DNA of 64,000 bases from Pristiophorus japonicus. Lineage: Eukaryota. This document shows positions 19,002 through 64,000 of the stretch, in pieces. A model generated the notes under the pieces. That model saw only the letters and a list, made by a program, of their open reading frames with translations, searched no databases and was not told where the DNA came from. Where the stretch lies: positions 52,390,001 through 52,454,000 of the forward strand of contig NC_091999.1 in the NCBI RefSeq assembly GCF_044704955.1. The letters are read 5' to 3'. Within the stretch, counting starts at the first letter, position 1. Each line of letters opens with the position of its first letter. Both the position numbers and the translations under genes were made by a program.

Positions 19002-21105
19002 ATGGGCATCAATGACCATTGTTATTTGATGGACACCAATGACCATTGTTATTTGATGGACACCAATGACCATTGTTATTTGATGGACACCAATGACCAT
19101 TGTTATTTGCTGGACACCAATGACTATTGTTATTTGCTGGACACCAATGACTATTGTTATTTGATGGACATCAATAACCATTATTATTTGATGGGTAGCA
19201 ATGACCATTGTTATATGATAGGTAACAATAACCATTGTTATTTAATGGACACCAGTGACTATTGTTATTTGATGGACACCAATGGCCATTGATATTTAAT
19301 GGACACCAATGACCATTGTTATTTGATGGACATCAATGGCCATTGTTATTTAATGGACACCAATGACCATTGTTATTTGATGGACATCAATGGCCATTGT
19401 TATTTAATGGACACCAATGACCATTGTTATTTGATGGACACCAATGACCATTGTTATTTGATGGACACCAGTGACCATTGATATTTGATGGACACCAATG
19501 ACCATTGATATTTGATGGACACCAGTGATCATTGTTATTTGATGTACACCAGTGACAATTGATATTTGATGGACACCAATGACCATTATTATATAATGGA
19601 CACCAATGACCATTGTTATTTGATGGACACCAATGACCATTGTTATTTAATGGAAACCACTGACCATTTTTATTTGATGGACATCAATGGCCATTGTTAT
19701 TTAATGGACACCAATGACCATTGTTATTTGATGGACACCAGTGACCATTGATATTTTATGGACACCAATGACCACTGATATTTGATGGACACCAGTGACC
19801 ATTGTTATTTGATGGACACCAGTGACAATTGATATTTGATGGACACCAATGACCATTGTTATATAATGGACACCAATGACCATTGTTATTTGATGGACAC
19901 CAATGACCATTGTTATTTAATGGAAACCACTGACCATTGTTATTTGATGGGCACCAATGACCATTGTTATTTGATGGGTAGCAATGACCATTGTTATTTA
20001 ATGGACTCCAGTGACCATTGTTATTTGATGGGCACCAATGACCATTGTTATTTGATGGGTAGCAATTACCATTGTTATTTAATGGACACCAGTGACCATT
20101 GTTATTTAATTGACGCCAATGACCATTTTTATTTAATTGATGCCAATGACCATTGTTATTTGATGGACATCAATGGCCATTGTTATTTGATGGACAACAA
20201 TGACAATTGTTATTTAATGGACACCAGTTACCATTATTATTAGATGTGTAGCAATGACCATTGTTATTTAATGGACACCAGTGACCAGTGTTATTTAATG
20301 GACACCAGTGTCCATTGTAATTTGATGGACACCAATGACCATTGTTATTTAATGGACTCCAGTTACCATTGTTATTAGATGGGTAGCAATGACCATTGTT
20401 ATTTGATGGGCACCAATGACCATTGTTATTTGATGGGCACCAATGACCATTGTTATTTGATGGGCAGCAATGACCATTGTTATTTGATGGGCACCAATGA
20501 CCATTGTTATTTGATGGGCAGCAATGACAACTCTTATTTGATGAACACCAATGACCATTGTTATTTGATGGGCACCAATGACCATTGTTATTTGATGGGC
20601 ACCAATGACCATTGTTATTTGATGGGCAGCAATGACAACTCTTATTTGATGAACACCAATGACCATTGTTATTTGATGGGCACCAATGACCATTGTTATT
20701 TGATGGGCACCAATGACCATTGTTATTTGATGGGTACCAATGACCATTGTTATTTTATGGGTACCAATGACCATTGTTATTTGATGGGTGCCAATGACCA
20801 TTGTTATTTTATGGGTACCAGTGACCATTGTTATTTCATGGACAACAATGACCATTGTTATTGATGGGAAGCAATGACCATTGTGATTCAATGGACACCA
20901 ATGACGATTGCAATTTGATGGGCAATAATGACCGTTGTGACTTAATGGACACCAGTGACCATTGTTATTTCATGGACACCAGTGACCATTGTTATTTGAT
21001 GTGTAGCAATGAACATTGTAATTGGATGGTCAGCAATGACCATTGTTATTTGAAGGGTAGCAATGAACATTGTAATTTGATGGACAGCAATGACGATTGT
21101 TATTT
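19002..21105. repeat. 27-bp minisatellite, about 78 units
   Basis: Unit atggacaccaatgaccattgttatttg; source of the MDTNDHCYL and MVIGVHQIT pseudo-ORFs. Confidence 0.98.
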
Positions 21106-39700: not shown

Positions 39701-42700
39701 CAGGGCTCAGTACTCGGACCCCAGCTCTTTAGAATATACATTTGTGATTTAGATGAAGTAATTGAGTGTAATATCTCCAAGTTTTCAGATGACACTAAAC
39801 TGCGTAACGGTGTGAGCTGTGAGGAGGACGCTAAAAGGCTTCAGGGTGATTGGACTGGTTAGGTGAATGAGCAAATGCATGGCAGATGCAGTATAATGTG
39901 GATGAATGTGAGGTTATCCAATCTGTGGTCAAATCACGAAGGCAGAATATTATCTGAATGGTGGAAGATTAGGAAAGGGGGAGGTGCAATGAGACCTTGG
40001 TGTCATGGTTCACCAGTCGTTGAAAGTTGGCATGCAGGTGCAGCAGGCAGTGAAGAAGGCAAATGGTACGTTGGCCTTCATAGCGAGGGGATTTGTATTG
40101 GAGCACGGAGGTCTTACTACAGTTGTACGGGGCCTTGGTGAGGCCTCATCAGGAATATTGTGTTCAGTTTTCGTCTCCTAATCTGAGGAAGGACGTTCTT
40201 GCTATTGAGGGAGTACAGCGAAGGTTCACCAGACTGATTCCCGGCATGGCGGGACTGACATATGAGGAGAGACTGGATCAACTGGGCCTTTATACATTGC
40301 AGTTTAGAAGGATGAGAAGGGATCTCATCTAAACTTACAAGATTTTGACGGGACTGGTCAGGTCAGCTCCAGCATTTCTTTCTTCACTGAAAGAGCTTTA
40401 AAAGATTACAGGAGGTCCACAATAAAACGATTCTGTGCTTTACAATTATATTTAAATTCATCTGTTTGTATCCATTGCTTTGAATTCGGCGTCAGTTTAA
40501 TGCTCATCTGTCATTGCTCTGGGGATCTCCTTCACAATCGGGCTGACTTTCTTCCATCTACTGCTGCTGTCTCGGTGTAATCGGTTCAAACTGGTTGTAA
40601 ATGAAGATTCTTTTATAGCATTTTGAGTGTAAATGTTGCATTGTTATAAATTAGCAATGTTGCTGGGCCTTATTTCCAGTTATCTAATTTGGTACAGAAC
40701 GATTCATAATGGCTTTAGTTTCTGAAGTGCGAATCTACGGATAACTTGGCTATCCCTTGTGTTAAAGTTGATTTAATTCAATTACTGAGGCAACTCGAAT
40801 GATGCATTCAGATATGTATATCTGTGTACTGGTCTGATACTTGTTTGGTACAAATGACGCGCACGTTTCCTGGACAGTAACTATTGAGTGTTAGTGATCT
40901 TATTACACAACATGACCTGAAAAATAGATTTATTTCTAGACGTGACAGTGTTCATTAAAGTAAGTTTCCATTAGAGCTTTCATTGCATACTTACAAACGT
41001 TTAATAATTAAGAAGCTACTCGCTAAATGTAATAAATACTTCAAGGAATTACGCACAAGATTAGGTAATGGTAACTTCATGTTGATAACTACCTGCAGCA
41101 AACTATCAGTGACTGAGTGTAAGTAGTGCATTTACTGATAGTGTGTTAGTTCAGCGTTATTGACAACCGTTAACTATGAATGAGAAATTCGCAGTTTCTA
41201 TTAATTACGCTGTCGAACCATCAGAAGATTATGGGTTGAAGTCCACTCCAGAAGGTTCACCACAAAATCAAGGCTGACACTCCAGTTCAGTGCTGGGAGA
41301 GCGTGGCACTGTCAGAGGTGCTGTGTTTCAGATGAGACGTAAAACCGAGCCCCCATCTGCTCTCTCAGGTAGATGTTAAAGTTTCCATGGCAAGAAGAGC
41401 AGAAGAGTTATCGCCGGATTCCTGGCCAATATTTAACCCTCAATCAACACATCTAAAACAGATAATCTGTTCATCATCACATTGCTGTTTGTGGAAGCTT
41501 GTAATATGGTAATTGGCTGTCCCGTTTCTTACATTACGAAAGTGAATACACTTCGAAAAGTACTTAATTGGCTGTAAAACGTTTTGAGACATCGTGAGGT
41601 CGTGAAAGATGCAATATAATTGCAAGTCTTTCTTTCTTTTTGTCGCCATCGTTCAGTGAAATCTTGTCCTGCTCTTGGAATGAGCTACTCTGGGATTCTC
41701 TTTTTTAAATGCTATTCAACTCCACTTGTTACTTCTATTCTTTGCTAATGTTCCAGACCGTTGCCCTCTCCAGTCAACCCTCCATTGCTATCCATGGCAC
41801 CGGTCCAAAGACCGGGATGAGGGACTTCAATTACTTGCAGAGACTAGAGAAACTCGGCTTGTGGCCCTTGGAGCAGAGAAGGTTAAGGGTAGATATAATC
41901 GATGTGTTCAAAACCATGTAGGGCTTTGACAAACTAAATCATGAGAAACGGTTTAAAGTGGCAGAAGGTTCGGGACCCAGAGGCCACAGATTTAAGGTGA
42001 TTGGCAAATAAAACAGAGGTGAGATGAGGAATCATTTTTTATGCAGCGTGTTGTTGTGATCTGGAATGCAATGCTTGAAACGGTGATGGAGGCAGATTCA
42101 ATAGTAACTTTCTAAAGGGAATTCGATAAGTACTCTAAGGTGGAAATAGCACGGTTCCGAGAGGAGAACAGGGGATAGCTCTGTCAAAGAGCCTGCACAG
42201 GCACGATGCGCCGAATGGTTTACTTCTGTGCTGTATCATTCTCTGCTTGGCCCTCGGCCTCCAACTTCAGATTGGAGCAATCCCTTGGTCATTTTACTGG
42301 AGCCGGTCAACCAGTGGCTCATTTGCTCCTCCATGATGTTTCCGTGTAACTCCTAATCCCATCTTCAAACCGGGAGCCAAAATCCAAATTTAACCCGACC
42401 GTTCATCATCCCTGGTGGCACGGTCCACATTCACCACCTCTGAAATGATTCACAATATTTAACGTGTCTTTTACAATCTGCTTCTTGTTGCATGTCCGAT
42501 TCTGAATGGGTGGCTCCCATTAAACAATCCGTCACCACCTATCCCGCAGGCTATAAGCTCATCCCCGACTGTCACTTAGTGGCTCCCATTAAACGCTCCC
42601 TCAACACGTTTCACGCAGGTTCTAGACAGACCCCGGCTCTCACTGAGTGGCTCCCATTAAACGCTCCCTCACCAACTATGCCGCAGGTTATAGGCTCACC

Positions 42701-45700
42701 CCCGGCTGTCATTGAATGACTCACATTAAAGGCTCCCTCACCACCTATCCAATGAGTTATAGACTCATCCCCAGCTCTCACTGAGTGTCTCACACTAAAC
42801 GCTCTCTCACTACCTATCCCACAAGTTATGGACTAACACCCGGCGCTCACTGACTGGCTCACACTAAACGCTCCCTCACTACCTATCCCACAAGTTATGG
42901 ACTCACCCCCGGCTCTCATTGAGTGGCTCCCATTAAACACTCCCTCACCACCTATCCCACAGGTTATGGACTCACCCACGGCTCTCACGGAGTGGCTCAC
43001 ACTATACTCTCCCTCACCTTCTATCCCACAGGTTATGGACTCACCCCCAGCTCTCATTAAGTGGCTCTCATTAAACGCTCCCTCACCACCTATCCCGCAG
43101 TTTATTGGCTCACCCCCAGCTCTCAAGGAGTAGCTTACACTATACGCTCCCTCACCACCTATCCCGCAGTTTATAGGCTCATCCCCGGCTCTCAAGGAGT
43201 GCTTACACTATACGCTCCCTGACCACCTATGCCACAAGTTATAGATTCACCCCCGGTTCTCACTGAGTGGTTCCCATTAAACACTCCCTCACCACCTATC
43301 CCGTAGGTCATAGACTCATCCCCGGCTGTCACTGAGTAGCTCCCATTAAACGCTCCCTCACCACCTAACCCACAGGTTATGGACACACCCCCGGCTGTCA
43401 CTGAGTGGCTCATGTTAAACGCTCCCTGAATACGTATCACGCATATTATAGACTGACCACGGCTCTCACTGAGTGGTTCCCATTAAACGCACCCTCACCA
43501 AGTATTCATCAGGTTATAAACTCACCCCCGGCGGTCACTGAATGGCTCCCATTAAACGTGCCCTCACCACCTATTCAATGGGTTATAGACTCACCCCCAG
43601 CTCTCACTGACTGGCTGAGACTAAACGCTCCCTCACCACCTATCCCGCAGTTTATAGACTCACCTCAGCTCTCATGGAGTGGCTCACACTATATGCTCCC
43701 TCACCACCTATCCCACAGTTTATAGGCTCACCCCCGGCTCTCACTGAGTGGTTCCCATTAAACGCTCCCTCACCACCTGTCCAATGGGTTATAGACTCAC
43801 CACCAGCTCTCACTGAGTGGCTCACAATAAATGCTCCCTCACCACTTGTCCCGCATTTTATAGACTCACCCCTGGCACTCATTGAGTGACTCCCATTAAA
43901 CGCTCCCTCACCACCTATCCCGTAGTTTATAGACTCACCTCGGCTCTCATGGAGTGGCTCACACTATACGCTCCCTCACCAGCTATCCCACAGTTTATAG
44001 GCTCACCTCCGGCTCTCACTGAGTGCTTCACATTAAATGCACCCTCACCACCAATCCCACAGATTATGTACTCGCACCCGGCGCTCACTGACTGGCTCCC
44101 ATTAAACGCTCCCTCACCACCTATCCCACAGGTTATGGACTCACCCCCGGCTCTCACTGAGTGGCTCCCATTAAACACTCTCTCGCCACTTATCGCGCAA
44201 TTCATATACTCACCCCCAGCTCTCAAGAAGTGGCTCACACTATACGCTCCCTCACCTTCTATCTCACAGGTTATGGACTCACCTCTGGCTCTCACTGAGT
44301 GGCTCCCATACAACGCTCCCTCACCACTTATCCTGCAGTTTATAGGCTCAACCCAGCTGTCACTGACAGGTTCTCTGCAGTGCCGCCATTACAGTGATAC
44401 TGGATACCATGACACTGTCTAATGGTCAAGGAACAACTGGACCGAGTGCTGGGAGTTGTGCCCTGGCCAACATTTGTCCCTCAATCAATATCACAAAGGT
44501 GCAGTTTGCTGGTCAATGATCTCATTGCCTTTTTTCACCGCCCATTAGCAGAATGGCTGCTCCATTAACCAGATAGCAACAATCGTAATTTGGAGTCATT
44601 CCATATGGGAATTTTACGATTCTCCTGAGGTGTAAATAGCAGTCGATCGCACTCTTTCTACCATCAATTTTCAAGGTGACATTATGTTTAGCTTGTCCTA
44701 TTTAATGTTGGGATAAATTATTCATTAACTATTAGTGTATGTCTGTTCTTTACTATGGTCAGTTTCGCTCTCCTTCTCTTTTTGTGCCGAGTTCAGGCGA
44801 TTATAGCCTCAAGTCTATCGAGCAAAACGCTTTCCCTGCGATTCCATATTGTTCCGTATTTAGTAAAGCTCTGCTGATCTGGCAAATTGATTGGTTTCCA
44901 TCAACTGATCAGGTAATGAACTCAGAAACCATGTCCAGTCAAACTAAGACTTTGAATGGCTATGGAGGCTGGGTTACTGAAGATAATTAAGGCGGAGATA
45001 AACAGATTTTTGAGCGATAAGTGAAAGAAGGTTTCGGGGGGGTGGGCAACGAAGTGGAGCTGATCCATGATCAAATCAGCCATGATCTTATTAAATGGCG
45101 GAGCAGGCCCGGGGGAGGGGGGTGCGGTGGGAGGCAAATTGCCTACTCCTGCTCCTATTTCATATGTGCTTATGTTCTTATGATGGTAGTCTGAAGTGTA
45201 ATTTCCATTTTGCTCCTTTTTGCAGCGAACATCGCAGCGATTGTGATCCTGTCCCGAGGAAGGTGCGGTCTCTCCAGGTGTATCACTCGGTACCTGGTGT
45301 TCATGGCGGTGACCGATCTCCTGGTCATTATCACCGCTGTGATATTGAATAGAATTGGTGGTATCTATTTCCGGATTAGCATTCTGTCCACCACACCAGC
45401 GTGCAGCATCAGCACTGTGCTCATTTATTCATCAAGAGACAGTTCTGTCTGGTTAACGGTTGCGTTCACCTTTGATCGATTTGTGGCCATTTGTTGCCAG
45501 AAGCTGAAAACAAAATACTGCACCGAGACAACGGCGGCTGTGGTGATAGGAGCGGTCTGTGCCCTGAGTTGTTTAAAAAACATCCCTTTCTACTTCACGT
45601 ATGAGCCATTATTTACTATTAATAAGGTGGCCTGGTACTGCAACATAAAACTTACTTTTTATGTTTCACCCGCTTGGACAGCGTTTGACTGGCTGGACCG

Positions 45701-46742: not shown

Positions 46743-47930
46743 ATAAAGCACCTTGGAACCTCCCTGGGTGTGAAGCTCCATGGAACCTTCTTGGGAGTAC
46801 ATCGCCTTGGATCCTCCCTGGGAGTAAAATACTTTGGAACCTTCCTGGGTGTAAAAAACTTTGGATCCTCCCTGGGTCTGAAATACTTTGGAACCTCCCT
46901 GCGAGAAAAACACTTTGGAACCTCCCTGGGTGTAAAACACTTTGGAACCTCACTGGGTGTAAAGCTCCAGGGAACCTCCCTGGGTGTAAATCGCCTTGGA
47001 ACCTCCTTGGGTGTAAAACATTTTGAAACCTCCCTGTGGGTGTCAAACACTTTGGAACCACCCCCCATCCCGGGTGTAATGCTCTTTGGAACCTCCCTGG
47101 GTGTAAAACACTTTGGAACCTCCCTAGGTGTAAAACACTTTGGAACCTCCCTGGGAGTAAAACACTTTGGAACCTCCCTGCGTGTAAAACACTTTGGAAC
47201 CTCCCTGGGTGTAATGCTCTTTGGAACATCCCTGGGTGTAATGCCCTTTGGAACCTCCCTGGGTGTAATGCGCTTTGGAACCTCCCTGGGTGTAATGCGC
47301 TTTGGAACCTCCCTGGGTGTAATGCTCTTTGGAACCTCCCAGGTTGTAAAACACTTTGGAACCTCTCTGCATGAAAACACTTTGGAACCACCCTGGGTGT
47401 AAAACACTTTGGAACTTGCCTGGCTGTGAAACACTTTGGAACCTCCGGGTGTAAAACACTTTGGAACCTCGCTGGGTGTAAATATCTTTGGAAACTCCCT
47501 GGGTATAAATCTCTTTGGAAGCTCCCTGCGTGTAAAACACTTTGGATCCTCCCTGGGGATACATATCTTTGGAAACTCCCTGGGTGTGAAGCACTTTGGA
47601 ACCTCACTGGGTATGAAACACTTTGGAACCTCCCTGAGTATAAATATCTTTTGAACCTCCATGGGTGTATATATCTTTGGAACATCTCTGGGTGTAAAGC
47701 ACTTTGGAACCTCCCTCGCTGTAAAGCTCCATCATACCTCCCTGGGTGTAAAGCCCTTTGGAATCTTTCTAGGTGTAAAGCACTTTGGAACGTCTCTGGG
47801 TGTAAAGCCCTTTGGAACCTCCCTGGGTGTAAAGCGCTTTGGAACCTCCCTGGTTGTAAAGTTCTTTGGTACTTTCCTGCATGTCACACTCTTTTGGTCA
47901 ACCCTGGCTGCAACGCCCTTTGGAGCCTCC
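46743..47930. repeat. 27-bp minisatellite, about 44 units
   Basis: Unit gtaaaacactttggaacctccctgggt; the consensus is stop-free in all six frames, which explains the overlapping long ORFs. Confidence 0.97.
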
Positions 47931-57392: not shown

Positions 57393-58578
57393 ACCGAGGC
57401 CGACCTGGTTGGGAACACCAGCAACTACAGCGGAGATAAGATGAGCTAGCCCAACGCAGGGAGCAGCATAAGCCGTCCTGAGAGGAAGACAAAAGCAAAG
57501 TGGGTGACAAAACCGACTTCACAGCAACTCAGGTAGCTGGTTGTTGGCGTAACTTGGAGTGACATCGAGCCAAGCGGCGAGGTCAGGGCCCAGAAGAGTT
57601 TGGCGAACAATGGAAAGTTTCGGAGGTTGGCGAGCAGCGTGAGGTCCGGAGGACGGTAACCAGTGGGAGTTCTGGATGTCACCGATCAGCACAAGCTCCG
57701 CAGGTCGGTGAGCAGTGGGAGCAGTGGCAAGGTTCGGAGGTCGGCCAGCAGCAGGAGGTTCGCAAGTCGGCGATTAGGGAGAGGACAGGAGGTCGGCGAG
57801 CTGTGGACATTAGCGAGGAGCGGAGGACGGGACCAGCGAGGCCTGGAGATGGGAAGTGGCGAGGAATAGATGTTGGGAACAGCGAGGTCAGTACCCATGA
57901 GCAGCAACTTCGAGTTCCATGAATACGAGGGAGACAGAAACTGCTGGACCGAGAGACGAAGACAGTTGGTGTATGCATGAGTGTACGTACTATACCTTTG
58001 CAGCAGAGCGTGGTCTTCAGTCACCTTGTATCCCCTTGCCACTTGGCCAAGACCTTGCTCTGCCAAGCCCGTGTGATAGCTGGTGTGCAACCGCAACCCG
58101 ATTTTAAAATATATCACATACAGGCATTTTCCTCCCTTCAAAAGGAAGTACTGGACCTGGAACGTCAGGACCCTCATGGACAACTTCAACAGTGACAGAC
58201 AGAAGTGTTGCATTACTGTCGTTGCCCGGGAACTCTGACGTTTTAATGGACACATCACCGCATTAAGCGAGATAGCGGCTAGGGGAAAGCCAGCTCAAAA
58301 AACAAGGCGGTGGGGACAGCTTCTTCAGGAAAGATAAACCATAAGAAGAATACCGGCTCCGTAGTGTTAGCTTCGCCATAAAAAAATGAGCTAGTCGGCC
58401 GTGTCAGAGACTCCCCTTGCTGGATAAACGAAAGCATCATGATTCTTTGCCTCACCCTAGCCCAGAACCAGGGTGCTACGGTCTACAGAGCGTACCCCCC
58501 AACCCTGGAAGCAACAGACGTGACCAAAGAGTAATTCTACTCCAGGCTCGAACAATCCCTGTCCCTCGGCTCAGCGGG

Positions 58579-59087
58579 TGTATTGTATAGGGTTAATCAT
58601 ATAGGGTTAATGATGATATTTAGTCATCTTGAGTGTGTTTCTGTCCCAGGCCTCATGGAATGATAAGCAGAGAAACAGAGAGAGAGAGCTTGAGGTCTCA
58701 TGCTTTGTGGACGAGCACCTGCGGCTTTATAGATTAGGAGTTCGCCATAAGCCACATGCACATGTTTTGCTCAATAGTATGTTATTGGATAATATAAAGG
58801 TACAGCACTGTCCCGTAGCTCTTCGAACTTCACCTTGGACCGAAATTCGCGAGCTGTGCCGGGACCCGCAATGCTCCAGACCAGCCGTCCCTTGAGGAGT
58901 TCTGGACGAGCAGAAGGCCGTGAGCTTTGTTACTTTGTATCATACTTCTCTTTTGTTCGTAAACTGTATTTTTAATGTTTATTTTCTCTCAGTAAACGGT
59001 ATGTTATTCTTTACGTCATTTGCCTTGTCTCTTATTTAACATTCATCCAGATCCCGAATCTGAGTCTATTATTATCAATCCAAAACA
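58579..59087 (+). repeat. 5' LTR (509 bp)
   Basis: Direct repeat of 62705-63216; TATAAA at 58793, candidate poly(A) signal AGTAAA at 58991. Confidence 0.95.
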
Positions 59088-59090
59088 TTT

Positions 59091-59108
59091 TGGCGTCACA
59101 AACAGGAT
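59091..59108 (+). promoter_or_regulatory. Primer-binding site, tRNA-Ser type
   Basis: TGGCGTCACAAACAGGAT; 17/18 to the complement of the 3' end of a vertebrate tRNA-Ser(CGA) as I recall it (TGGCGTCACGAACAGGAT). Confidence 0.75.
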
Positions 59109-59116
59109 CTGGTAAA

Positions 59117-60198
59117 ATGCTTAAGAGAAAAGACGAGAAGCAGTCTCCTCCTGCGAGAGAGAAGTATAGAATACCAGGGTGGGGAACGAGGGATGAGGGT
59201 TTTGGCTCTCTTGCCAAGGTGCTAGCCCGGTTTGGACCCCGGCAACATGGGGATACGCCGTTATTGGAACAGAACAAAGGTAGAGCCGTACCCCACGCAG
59301 TACTGCCTCTCCTGGACGAAGAGGGCTTCCCACAGGAGAAAAATAGTCTCCCACAAATGGAATGGATTTTGTTGATAGCCTTAAGGGCGATGTGTAAACA
59401 ACTGAAGGAAAGTGAGACAGAAAACCTACCGCTAAAAACAGCTGTTAAGGTTTTGGAAAGTAAAAACTCGACCCTGACTGAAGCAGTCCACACTGCACAA
59501 GAGCGGGTGGACAAGGTCAATGAACAAACAGAATCTTTAATATGCCGTCTGGTGACAGTACAAATTAAAAAGAAAGCTAGACGACGGAAATTACAGCTGG
59601 ATTCGAAATATATCGTTTGTATTTGCTGCTGCATGTGGTATGGGCTTGCTCAATCCGATCCCAGTGAGTGTTTAAAAGCCCATTGAAAATCATATGGGGA
59701 ATGTATACAAGCTGGAAGAAATGGAGAGGAGGGGGGAACGGGAGAAACTAAAGACCCTCCCCCATACGCTGCGAGCACGGAAGCTAGAACCCTTATGACA
59801 AATAAGACGAAACAGTAAGATGGGGAACAACCGGTAACCACTAGAGGGGTGCATGACTTCACCACTGATGAGTTACAAGAAATGGTTACTACTGGGGTCC
59901 AGCAAAACTATCCCTATGCCGTTGATTGGGAAGGGGAGGTAAAACCTTGAAATACTATGGCAGAGTGTGCAATACAGTTACGCAACATGGCAACACAGGG
60001 AAGAATATATCACCAACAATCTGGGGGCCAGATCACGAGCTCTTTACGGCAGGAAGGCGGAACAGCCTGATGAAGAGTGGCCCTCCTATGATGAGGGGTG
60101 CGCTACACGCATTATTGGGACCAGCCCAAGGGCAGCGGGTGGCGCACGCCTGCCTATTTTTAGGACAGTTAGAGGATGTAGAAGATCCCCTCGACTAG
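59117..60198 (+). pseudogene. gag: ERV gag remnant
   Basis: ATG just after the PBS; open ~190 aa with a coiled-coil-like stretch, then frameshifts; terminal TAG is in frame with the protease-proximal GDLRPHI. Confidence 0.7.
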
Positions 60199-60281
60199 GG
60201 GTGTTGCCGGAATCCAGGGGCACCCCCCGTTACAACCATATCAACCCAAGCTCCCGGGGATCTGAGGCCACACATTCTGAT

Positions 60282-60312
60282 TACTTACCTGACAGGGGAG
60301 TAACCATAATCA
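60282..60312 (+). ncRNA. U1 snRNA 5' fragment captured in the ERV (not a gene)
   Basis: TACTTACCTGACAGGGGAGTAACCATAATCA, 27/31 to human U1 nt 2-32 (TACTTACCTGGCAGGGGAGATACCATGATCA). Confidence 0.75.
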
Positions 60313-60544
60313 GCTTTGTTGAATGACGAAAGACTTTGTGAATGACTGTCTGTGAATGAAAGCGCTTTTGTGTTTTTTTGACTGCGGAATGAATTTTTCA
60401 TATGTCTGAAAGCCTGTTTGGAAAAATAGTGGAGCTGCCTGTTTGTTTTAGCTCCACCCATTTTTTCAAACAGAGTGAAAACATGTTTAACCCTTCGTAG
60501 TGTTGTCCTGTATGTGGGAAGTCTTCAGAAAGTGTGAACCATAC

Positions 60545-62307
60545 AGCGGACACCATACAAGAGCTCTTGGGGGCGGGTATCATTGGACACGCAGTGTCCC
60601 CCTACAATAGTCCTGTTTGGCCTGTGCAGAAACCCGACAAAAGTTGGAGAATGACTGTGGACAACCGACAACTGAACAAATTTACCCCTCCCCTGGCAAC
60701 CGCTGTCCCAGATGTAGCAACTATAACAGAGCGACTGTCTGAAGAAGGTGCGGAGTGGTATGCGGTAATCGACCTGGCCAATGAGACACACAAGGTCAGG
60801 CGAGCGCAGGAAAGCTCCATAATGCGCTGGAAATTGTATTTCGTAGACAGAGCAAGTACAGGAATAGAAGGAATCACCAGAGTACATGATCATGTGGATG
60901 AGTGCCTACATATAGCTGAGAGTGAACTTACGCAGTCGTCTGTCAGTTTAACCAAAGAGTCACCGGTCTCCTGGGGCGTGTCTTTTGAACAGTTAACACC
61001 TGAAGAACGTAGCCATGCCTGGTTCACAGATGGCTCAGCGGTCTGGCGAAACCGCCTTCGGTGATGCCGAGCCGCTGCCTTCAATACAAAAACCCAGACA
61101 AATGTGTATGATGAGGGCGTGGGAGGCTCCAGCCAGCTCGCAGAACTAGCAGCTGTAGTCCTTACGTTAGAAGAGGAACAGCAACAAGTAAACATATATA
61201 CTGACTCATGGGCAGTAGCCAATGGCATGGCGAGCTGGATGCAAAACTGCCATGAACATAACTGGCAAATAACTGGCAAAGACTTGTGGGGAAAGCACTT
61301 ATGGGAACAAATATCGTTCAAAGCCCAGAAGATGAAAATAGCTGTATATCATGTGGACGCTCACATGAAAAACACTTCAAAGACCTCTGAATATAAAAGC
61401 ACCATTGATAATATAGCCCGGGTACGGGCTGTCAAAGAGGCGGAAGAGGAAGAATATGGCATAGGCAAGTGGACCCACCACAAATCTGGACGTTTGTGCA
61501 TTCAGGGTACGATAAAATGGGCACGAAATAGGGGGTTACATTTGATTACGGAAGGTGTTAAACAGATCATAAACACCTGTGAAATTTGTCAAAAGGTGAA
61601 GCATTTTCCCTACAATGACAAACCGGTGCCCATATTAAGAGAGGGACTCAACCAGCACAAATATGGTAAATTGATTATATAGGACCTTACCATTGCAACA
61701 AAGGTTCCAATATTTCGTCACTGCTGTCGATAACTATTCTGGACTTTTGATAGCTTATCCAGTGACTAAAGCGAATCAACAAAGTACGATTAAACGACTG
61801 GAGAATTTAAACGTATACTACGGAGAGCCAGCAGAAGTACAGTCCGATAATAGGTCGCACTTCACAGGTCAAGCAGTGCAACAGTGGGTGTTAGACAACG
61901 GGATCTATTGGATGTTTCACATACCTTACTATCTGCAAACAAAGGGTTAATAGAACGCATGAATGGTCTACTTAAACAACAGATTAATATTAATTCCCAC
62001 TAACACCTTGCAAGGGTGGTTAAAGGTCTTACCACAAGCAGTGCACAATCTGAATCACCGACCATTAAGCGGTGGGAGCTCCCATAAGCCACATGTTAAG
62101 AAAGTTAGTGTCCCTACTATTGAAAAGGAAAATCAGACTCAGGACTCAGTTTGTGAAGGCGGAAAAGTGGTGGTGCAGTACCCCCAGAAACCCTTACAAG
62201 CAGGAGAAATCTTAGCGAAAAGAGAAGAAAACACTTATTGGGTGTTCCTGACTGGTCAAGATATTCCTCGCTGTGTTGACAAGGGTAAATTGACTAAACG
62301 AGGCTGA
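60545..62307 (+). pseudogene. pol: ERV pol remnant: RT N-terminus fused to tether/RNase H, then integrase
   Basis: SPYNSPVWPVQKPD..WRMTVD..LN..IDLAN joined to HKVRRAQESSIMRWK; WFTDGS, QLAELAAV, YTDSWAVANG, HVDAH; IDYIGPLP, QSDN, IERMNGLLK. Confidence 0.92.
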
Positions 62308-62349
62308 ATTAACATACCTATGCTTCCTCCCGCAGGAATTCTGCCCAAA

Positions 62350-62704: not shown

Positions 62705-63216
62705 TGTATTTTATAGGGTTAGTCATATACGGTTAATTATGATATTTAGTCATCTTGTGTGTGTTTCTGCCCCAGGCCTCGTGGAATGTTATGCAGAGAA
62801 ACAGCGAGAGAGAGACCTTGAGGTCTCATGCTTTGTGGACGAGCACCTGGGGCCTTACAGATTAGGAGTTGGCCATAAGCCACATGCACCCATGTTTTGC
62901 TCAATAATATGTTATTTGATAGTATAAAGGTACAGCACTCTACCGTAGCTCTTCGAACTTCACCTTGGACCGTGATTCGCGAGCGGTGCCTGGGCCCCAA
63001 TGCTCCAGACCAGGTGTCCCTTGTGGAGTTCCAGACGGGCAGAAGACCGTGAGTGTTGTTGCATCTTATCATACTTCTCTTTTCTTCGTAAACTGTATTA
63101 CTAATGTTTCTTTTCTCTCAGTAAACGGCATTTTATTCTTTACTTCATTTGTCTTGTCTCTTAGTTAACATTCATCCAGATCCCGAACCTGGGTCTGTTA
63201 TTATTGATCCAAAACA
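62705..63216 (+). repeat. 3' LTR (512 bp), preceded by PPT aagggtgga
   Basis: About 50 substitutions versus the 5' LTR by eye (~10%). Confidence 0.95.
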
Positions 63217-64000
63217 GCGGGCGACAATCTAATCCTCCTCAGCGAAATTAACGCCAGAGTTGGAAAGGACACAGACCTCTGGGGATTTGTGTCCTGCAGA
63301 GAGGGAGTAGGGAAAACCAACTCCAACAGCACCCTCCTCCTGACGAAATGCTTGGAACATGGCCTTGTCATAACCAACATCTTATTCCATCAAAAAGACA
63401 AATATAAGACTTCATGGCAACACCCTCACTCCAAGCATTGGCATCTGTTAGACTATGTCATCGTCCGAGCAAGGGACCGCAAGTTCATGCGCATCACCCA
63501 CGGCATGACAGGAGCTGACGACGGCTGGACGGCCCACTTCTTAATCCGCTCTGTCATCACCATTAATGAAGCTCCATAATAGCAACGGCAACAGAAGCAA
63601 TGCGGCAGGAAAATCAACACTGGAGCACTCAAAGACCCGACTAAGAAAGTTCTATTCAGCCAGCGCCTCACTGCCAACCTGACGACTACCAGTGATCCAG
63701 AGGCACAGAATCTCCACAATGCCTGGTCTGCCCTCAAGGCCTCTATAATTAGCACCTGTGAAAAGACGCTCGGTCATTCGACCAGGAAATACCAAGACTG
63801 GTTGTACGAGAAAGATCAGAGATCCGGTAGCTAATAGCCGACAAGTTTAAGGCATTCTTGAACTCGAAATAGCAACACAACTCAAGAGCAAGAAAGCAAA
63901 TCTACTGACGTCTGAAGAAGAGGTCTGACAAAAAACTCGCGACCTAAAAACAGATGATGTGTGGAGAAATGCAGGAGATTTAGCAACTAGCCGACAACCA

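Follow-up and report, generated by a model that had tools for sequence, protein, structure and literature searches.

A heavily deleted provirus of 4638 bp holds a fragment of U1 snRNA at 60282-60312 which, judging from its sequence, is a real piece of U1 and not a U1 gene. It heads a non-viral patch of about 260 bp beginning with U1 nt 2-32. The reading favoured here, to which we give roughly an even chance, is that the patch came from the viral reverse transcriptase (RT) switching onto a co-packaged U1-headed RNA, and that it is now a likely functionless passenger.

The U1 match and the provirus that holds it

The window, i.e. the whole stretch of DNA that was analysed, comprises 64,000 nucleotides. 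On its + strand, positions 60282-60312 agree with U1 nt 2-32 at 27 of 31 sites, the mismatches falling at U1 nt 12, 21, 22 and 28, and the earlier note had both the coordinates and the count right. The next-best 31-mer of the window reaches 19/31, and no more than 22/31 was attained in 200 shuffles of the window. The value of 27/31 is returned by all 14 metagenome loci and both genome-contig loci (16/16) fetched by pattern scans from public contigs, using a window-derived pattern in which 22 of the 27 agreeing letters were preset; at the unforced positions, 5/6 also agree. Eleven of the 14 metagenome loci are U1 genes according to Rfam (147-169 bits), with model position 1 lying one base upstream of the match, while two of the remaining three run off their contig and the last is the locus L010, considered further below. 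Among the loci retrieved, L007 and L008 belong to a single contig where U1 genes alternate at close range with U6 genes on the opposite strand. The full vertebrate-type U1 genes L015 and L016 sit on contigs assigned to two bacterial metagenome-assembled genomes, which likely reflects host contamination.

Identity to U1 ends after nt 32-33, only 4-15 matches being found over the next 39 nt, and this truncation point lies in a single-stranded segment, loop I, of the Rfam structure. Comparison with the Rfam U1 model (RF00003), which had been proposed as a check, assigned 60281-60314 to model positions 1-34, where the U1 5' end with its donor-pairing sequence is present, but the score from this 40-nt stretch was a weak 16.3 bits (E 0.0054), far below the gathering threshold of 69.5. 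No U1 match was reported by Rfam in 401-nt, 5-kb or 61-kb stretches of the window, and the full 164-nt U1 body (stem-loops I-IV and Sm site) is absent above gathering at 60282-60312. Sequence typical of the region upstream of U1 genes is also absent before 60282, where U1 loci have ...TC (mostly CAACTC) and the window has protease codons.

That eroded protease codons came to resemble U1 by chance is scarcely credible. The first 4-5 nt of the match do overlap plausible viral codons and the Rfam score is low, yet the match far exceeds both the shuffles and the rest of the window, it begins exactly at the U1 5' end, and the body of the insert has no protease similarity; a chance match is thus largely refuted.

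The provirus and the insert are organised as follows:

58574-58578 (+): 5' target-site duplication of 5 bp, the same five bases recurring at 63217-63221; within an RTE-like LINE endonuclease frame
58579-59087 (+): 5' LTR (TG...CA), with 51 mismatches to the 3' LTR in 508 aligned positions
59091-59108 (+): primer-binding site starting with TGG, in the sequence directly after the LTR
59117-60198 (+): broken gag; its end is likely a TAG that shares the frame of the protease start
60256-60285 (+): start of the protease region, GDLRPHILIT, aligning with GDPRPYIPLT of the ray relative P0172; its last codon overlaps the U1 match
60282-60312 (+): U1 snRNA nt 2-32, 27/31
60313-60411 (+): body of the insert, rich in T (39%, the viral flanks having 18-20%) and containing GAATGA four times
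60412-60476 (+): long hairpin with a 25-bp stem and an 11-nt loop, -29 kcal/mol
60477-60542 (+): rest of the insert, with neither tail nor target duplication; eroded viral linker may make up its last ~40 nt
60543-62309 (+): pol remnant (RT N-terminus, connection region, RNase H, integrase) with stops and frameshifts
62705-63216 (+): 3' LTR, paired with the 5' LTR at 58579-59087

The LINE frame that hosts the provirus (58140-58578 and 63222-63600), whose endonuclease we have labelled RTE by assumption, reads on across the element, and this continuity, together with the 5-bp duplication, indicates one clean integration. The provirus has its nearest protein relatives in Gag-Pol products of ERVs from a caecilian, turtles, an electric ray and several fish; the gag N-terminus, in particular, is 31.7% identical to that of the electric-ray ERV protein P0175 (E 3e-17, over 59093-59563). 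The best matches of pol among solved structures are Pr125Pol and peptidase A9/RT chains, which we take to be foamy-virus Pol. Paired LTRs, a primer-binding site (presumably of the tRNA-Ser type), the 5-bp duplication and a pol nearest to the ERV-L/ERV4/spuma-related group are all present, from which we infer that the provirus is probably a class III-like (ERV-L/ERV4/spuma-related) element. The gag match to the ray and the presumed CR1-type repeats of the window suggest that the host is a cartilaginous fish. A read-through arrangement of gag and protease is known from ERV-L-type elements.

The protease, most of the RT and most of env are gone, so the element could have moved only with the help of an intact relative. 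The RT N-terminus runs in frame into the connection region, some 290 codons having been lost near 60785, and the distance from the integrase to the 3' LTR is down to about 400 bp. Just 3' of the integrase, at 62322-62335, lies an acceptor-like pyrimidine tract with CAG, probably the acceptor of the largely missing env. A 14-nt stretch of the integrase (62082-62095) recurs without change in the LTRs (58745-58758 and 62873-62886) and is possibly a small template-switch patch. Protein searches with the RT-connection frame and the gag-end frame found no same-family copies at near lengths; further protein searches brought up relatives of no more than 58% identity, all of them distant, with no U1-derived peptide in those inspected. 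Among public sequencing runs, 7 from 3 studies shared some of the sequence words searched for, none of them as many as half and none an RNA run, and this overlap carries no weight. Among viral contigs there was no U1-head pattern, no primer-site pattern and, in 17 candidates, no RT relative.

Loss of the protease and composition of the insert

Among the relatives, 23 have a protease-to-QYR region, many of them being near-identical copies from two species, and in 16 of the 23 RP[YHFW] stands just before the catalytic DTG; the U1 match lies five codons after this motif that precedes the protease in relatives. The order of RP[YHFW] and DTG bears out the position at which the earlier note saw protease coding break off, after GDLRPHILI and directly before U1; its frame, in turn, may be one codon too short, as the viral reading appears to include a Thr codon (60283-60285) overlapping U1 nt 3-5. 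On score alone, the similarity of GDLRPHILIT to the relatives is weak, 8/100 shuffles scoring as high. At this codon, the viral ATTACT resembles the ATACT of U1, a microhomology of 4-5 nt if the Thr is viral, as seen in distant relatives only.

In 15 of the 16 relatives 134-146 codons separate RP from QYR (91 in the other one), and since none of this interval is detectable here, the sequence argues for replacement of about 410 bp of viral DNA and not for its interruption. About 260 bp, counted from the Thr codon to the return of RT homology, stand in place of the approximately 410 bp of protease and linker. RT homology is back at about 60543-60549, in agreement with the ~230 bp of non-retroviral sequence up to ~60545 described before, and the 3' border of the insert is uncertain by about 40 nt. 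At 60477-60542 one ray relative aligns PVC, protease and linker similarity there being not above shuffles. An eroded protease was also considered as the origin of the insert body and rejected, its best score of 33 being reached by 43/100 shuffles.

After the U1 part, T content rises to 33-39%, compared with 18-20% in the viral flanks. The motif GAATGA occurs four times in 100 nt (60321, 60340, 60354 and 60387), a count reached by 0/20000 shuffles for a motif picked post hoc. No tandem repeat was found that could account for this cluster. Elsewhere, the window holds tandem arrays at 19002-21105 (27 bp x 78), 42510-44366 (69 bp x 27) and 46744-47860 (27 bp x 41). The hairpin at 60412-60476 has a z-score of -4.87 (0/200 shuffles), and its region has the lowest energy among 794 81-nt windows with GC <= 0.42. 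No Rfam family comes near threshold for it; matches to SNORA69, mir-31_2 and mir-190 are far below gathering and were judged to be chance. A pyrimidine tract with CAG (60473) closes its 3' arm and resembles a splice acceptor. The hairpin is the size of a pre-miRNA, and a mirtron-like or a hidden-acceptor reading might be considered from its sequence.

The insert has no second copy within the window, no flanking duplication of 6 nt or more and, at its 3' end, no poly(A) and no tail of the CR1 type found in the window, where we take the repeats to be CR1. Neither the self-comparison of the window nor the U1 loci compared yielded a match for the source of the 230-nt body. An L2 or CR1 tail was tried as a source of the insert and dismissed, the LINE ends of the window being of the ATGTTTCT/ATGTTCTT type with no match. 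The L2 of platypus ends in TGAA repeats, and a short L2-type end may be present at the insert.

Origin of the patch

The U1 fragment is likely RNA-derived, since it starts at the mature 5' end, lies in viral sense and is accompanied by neither a U1 promoter, nor a target duplication, nor a LINE tail. A template-switch chimera, as the earlier note had suggested, is the reading that best fits the one copy available. In such an event the viral RT would leave the viral RNA at the start of the RT region, copy some 230 nt of an RNA from the host or a retroposon, continue through the U1 head to the 5' end of that RNA, and return to the viral template at the start of the protease, where ATTACT resembles ATACT, the first five bases of U1. 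The donor might have been one U1-headed transcript of the SINEU or Tx1 type, with two switches, or alternatively U1 and a second RNA, with three.

Several observations are consistent with this course of events. A host-type RNA piece stands in viral sense and replaces viral sequence without tail or duplication; viral and not U1-promoter sequence lies upstream of U1 nt 1-2; and the provirus itself is flanked by a clean 5-bp duplication and has a second large internal deletion, in the RT. The packaging of small RNAs by retroviruses and template switching, which had been called established, are indeed described in the accessible part of PMC4997597, according to which snRNAs are packaged by retroviruses and host RNA serves, via microhomology, to patch non-homologous junctions. 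The patch repairs and the snRNA and 7SL captures reported there resemble the present case in that a host small RNA occupies a non-homologous junction, in sense, in place of viral sequence; here, by contrast, the RNA is U1 and not U6 or 7SL, 230 further nt follow it, and the product is fixed in the germ line of what is likely a cartilaginous fish (PMC4997597, in part). Copies of snRNAs tied to LTR elements are mentioned, with reference to Giles et al. 2004, in the portion of PMC4476161 consulted. Furthermore, the available part of PMC4299795 reports the capture of host mRNA by crocodilian ERVs and makes no mention there of snRNA.

In the electric ray, all 14 annotated proteins of a related ERV (P0163, P0167-P0179) lack about 150 RT residues after YxDD, which suggests that deleted forms of this ERV lineage can spread, although the ray deletion could be an artefact shared among gene models.

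Against template switching, the event is seen in one copy, and the microhomology is drawn from the Thr codon of distant relatives and not of a sibling copy. The hairpin (z -4.87) and the GAATGA cluster are not explained by pure accident, unless they were brought by the donor RNA. Moreover, at 4/31 the U1 part has diverged somewhat more than the ~5% that each LTR should have accumulated since integration (P 0.07), a hint in the sequence that the U1 head may be older than this integration. In human data, finally, no U1/L1 template-switch chimera is counted among 33 U1 copies, such products being rare there (PMC4476161, in the part accessible).

The main rival, which one copy cannot separate from a template switch, is a LINE-type insertion combined with a deletion. 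A U1-headed non-LTR retroposon, SINEU-like or Tx1, would have been inserted by target-primed reverse transcription into the provirus or its ancestor, a deletion then removing its 3' end, the duplication and the protease; we hold this to be possible, if on the unlikely side. A U1-headed Tx1-like element does exist elsewhere. Positions 1-534 of L010 (one of the 14 metagenome loci) comprise U1 nt 1-46 and, after some 155 nt, an ORF bearing the Pfam domain RBD_ZCCHC3_1st (E 1.8e-18), presumably a Tx1-like ORF1, and its U1 part is preceded by bases like those upstream of U1 genes; the locus is read as a U1-headed or U1-gene-inserted Tx1-like LINE. The TG-rich body of the insert also gives us the impression of a LINE untranslated region. 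However, the insert is unlike the untranslated region of L010, it has neither a tail nor a target duplication, no Tx1 ORF1 is found in the window (P0183, tblastn, no match at E 1), and a second event, the deletion, is needed. As far as PMC4494074 could be consulted, U1 heads are carried by crocodilian SINEU and some Tx1 families, to which they were added recurrently, and one U1-headed family, Tx1-4_AMi, prefers certain LTR retrotransposons as targets, but SINEU is reported only from crocodilians. The insert shares with SINEU, Tx1-2_Crp and Tx1-4_AMi a U1-derived 5' fragment heading a non-U1 body; it differs in host lineage and in having no poly(A) tail, target duplication or Tx1 coding sequence, of which the tail and the duplication could have been deleted (PMC4494074, in part). 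A search of the open-access literature for Tx1 together with U1 returned no papers other than those on SINEU and Dada.

U1-headed Tx1 and SINEU retroposons are, in our assessment, a closer precedent than Dada-U1, and the earlier note had left them out, offering as one alternative the captured junction of a U1-targeting transposon. An origin from an element such as Dada-U1 is improbable. Such elements, which are likewise associated with U1 sequence, exist in ray-finned fish (PMC8869645, in part), and an interrupted U1 gene would yield an RNA starting at U1 nt 1, L010 perhaps being such a case with a LINE. Nevertheless, the break at nt 32-33 does not correspond to the Dada-U1 target: the published motif lies near U1 nt 84, at which position it is found in L003 (no exact motif was present in L004), and its insertions have duplications of 6-7 bp. 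Dada-U1 is described only from ray-finned fish, with Dada not detected in elasmobranchs, according to the accessible part of PMC8869645. No sequence from upstream of U1 is present here. The 3'-truncated, tailless U1 retropseudogenes of Group III provide a further comparison, sharing the mature 5' start and an end in a single-stranded loop; unlike them, the insert has no flanking target duplication, and the DNA downstream of it does not continue the DNA upstream (PMC4476161, in the part consulted). The earlier suggestion of a template switch stands in so far as viral sense, the mature 5' start of U1, the missing duplication and tail, and the replacement of viral sequence all agree with it, while it remains a reading of a single copy.

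Possible function and significance

The patch could also be more than a passenger, namely an RNA module kept by selection in a non-autonomous ERV family that was amplified, in which the U1 head would mask a donor, or GAAUGA and the hairpin would aid the export or packaging of unspliced RNA. Judged from sequence features, this is unlikely. The strong hairpin, the GAATGA cluster and the intact donor-pairing 10 nt of U1 are in its favour, as is the efficient spread of non-coding, non-autonomous ERVs such as ETn, reported in the available part of PMC6466679. However, the earlier idea of a retained cis U1 mimic finds no partner in the provirus: the best + strand pairing of the U1-like 5' end reaches -8.9 kcal/mol, where shuffles (n=15, 5' part) gave -8.8 to -14.8 and perfect pairing would give -15.8, so no donor pairs better than chance. 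A scan for + strand donors, covering all but about 150 nt of pol, found 12 GT sites at 7/9 consensus positions and none higher. The perfect donor that had been pointed out on the minus strand is simply the complement of the same 10 bases at the U1 5' end and adds no second observation. That all four mismatches fall outside the first 10 nt of U1 has a chance probability of 0.19, and the U1 part, which is not less diverged than the LTRs, shows no sign of preservation. Truncation has removed every stem of U1 along with the 70K loop and the Sm site, and without them no snRNP could form.

The provirus resembles ETn-type non-autonomous ERVs in having kept LTRs and primer-binding site while losing coding capacity, and differs from them in that much of pol remains and a single copy is known (PMC6466679, in part). 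The boldest version of a functional reading, a non-autonomous ERV family of cartilaginous fish with a conserved module (U1 5' end, GAAUGA cluster and acceptor-hiding hairpin) that would steer splicing, export or packaging, appears about as unlikely. If true, it would represent an LTR element that domesticated a spliceosomal RNA head; in the open-access literature, as far as accessible, no LTR element with such a head as a cis module was found.

The kind of event is already known, and the capture of U1 in this provirus is a new instance of it, real but probably ordinary. Judged by title or abstract opening, none of the open-access papers that the searches returned describes a U1 head inside a fish ERV. 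A one-off capture is useful for repeat annotation and not surprising, and the finding would gain greater weight if the insert were shared and conserved across the ERV family. As a likely one-off, the patch is a germ-line record, likely in a cartilaginous fish, either of a U1-headed RNA meeting a retroviral replication complex or of a LINE targeting an ERV, and in this insert, elements of the SINEU-like or U1-headed Tx1 kind may have left a first trace in cartilaginous fish.
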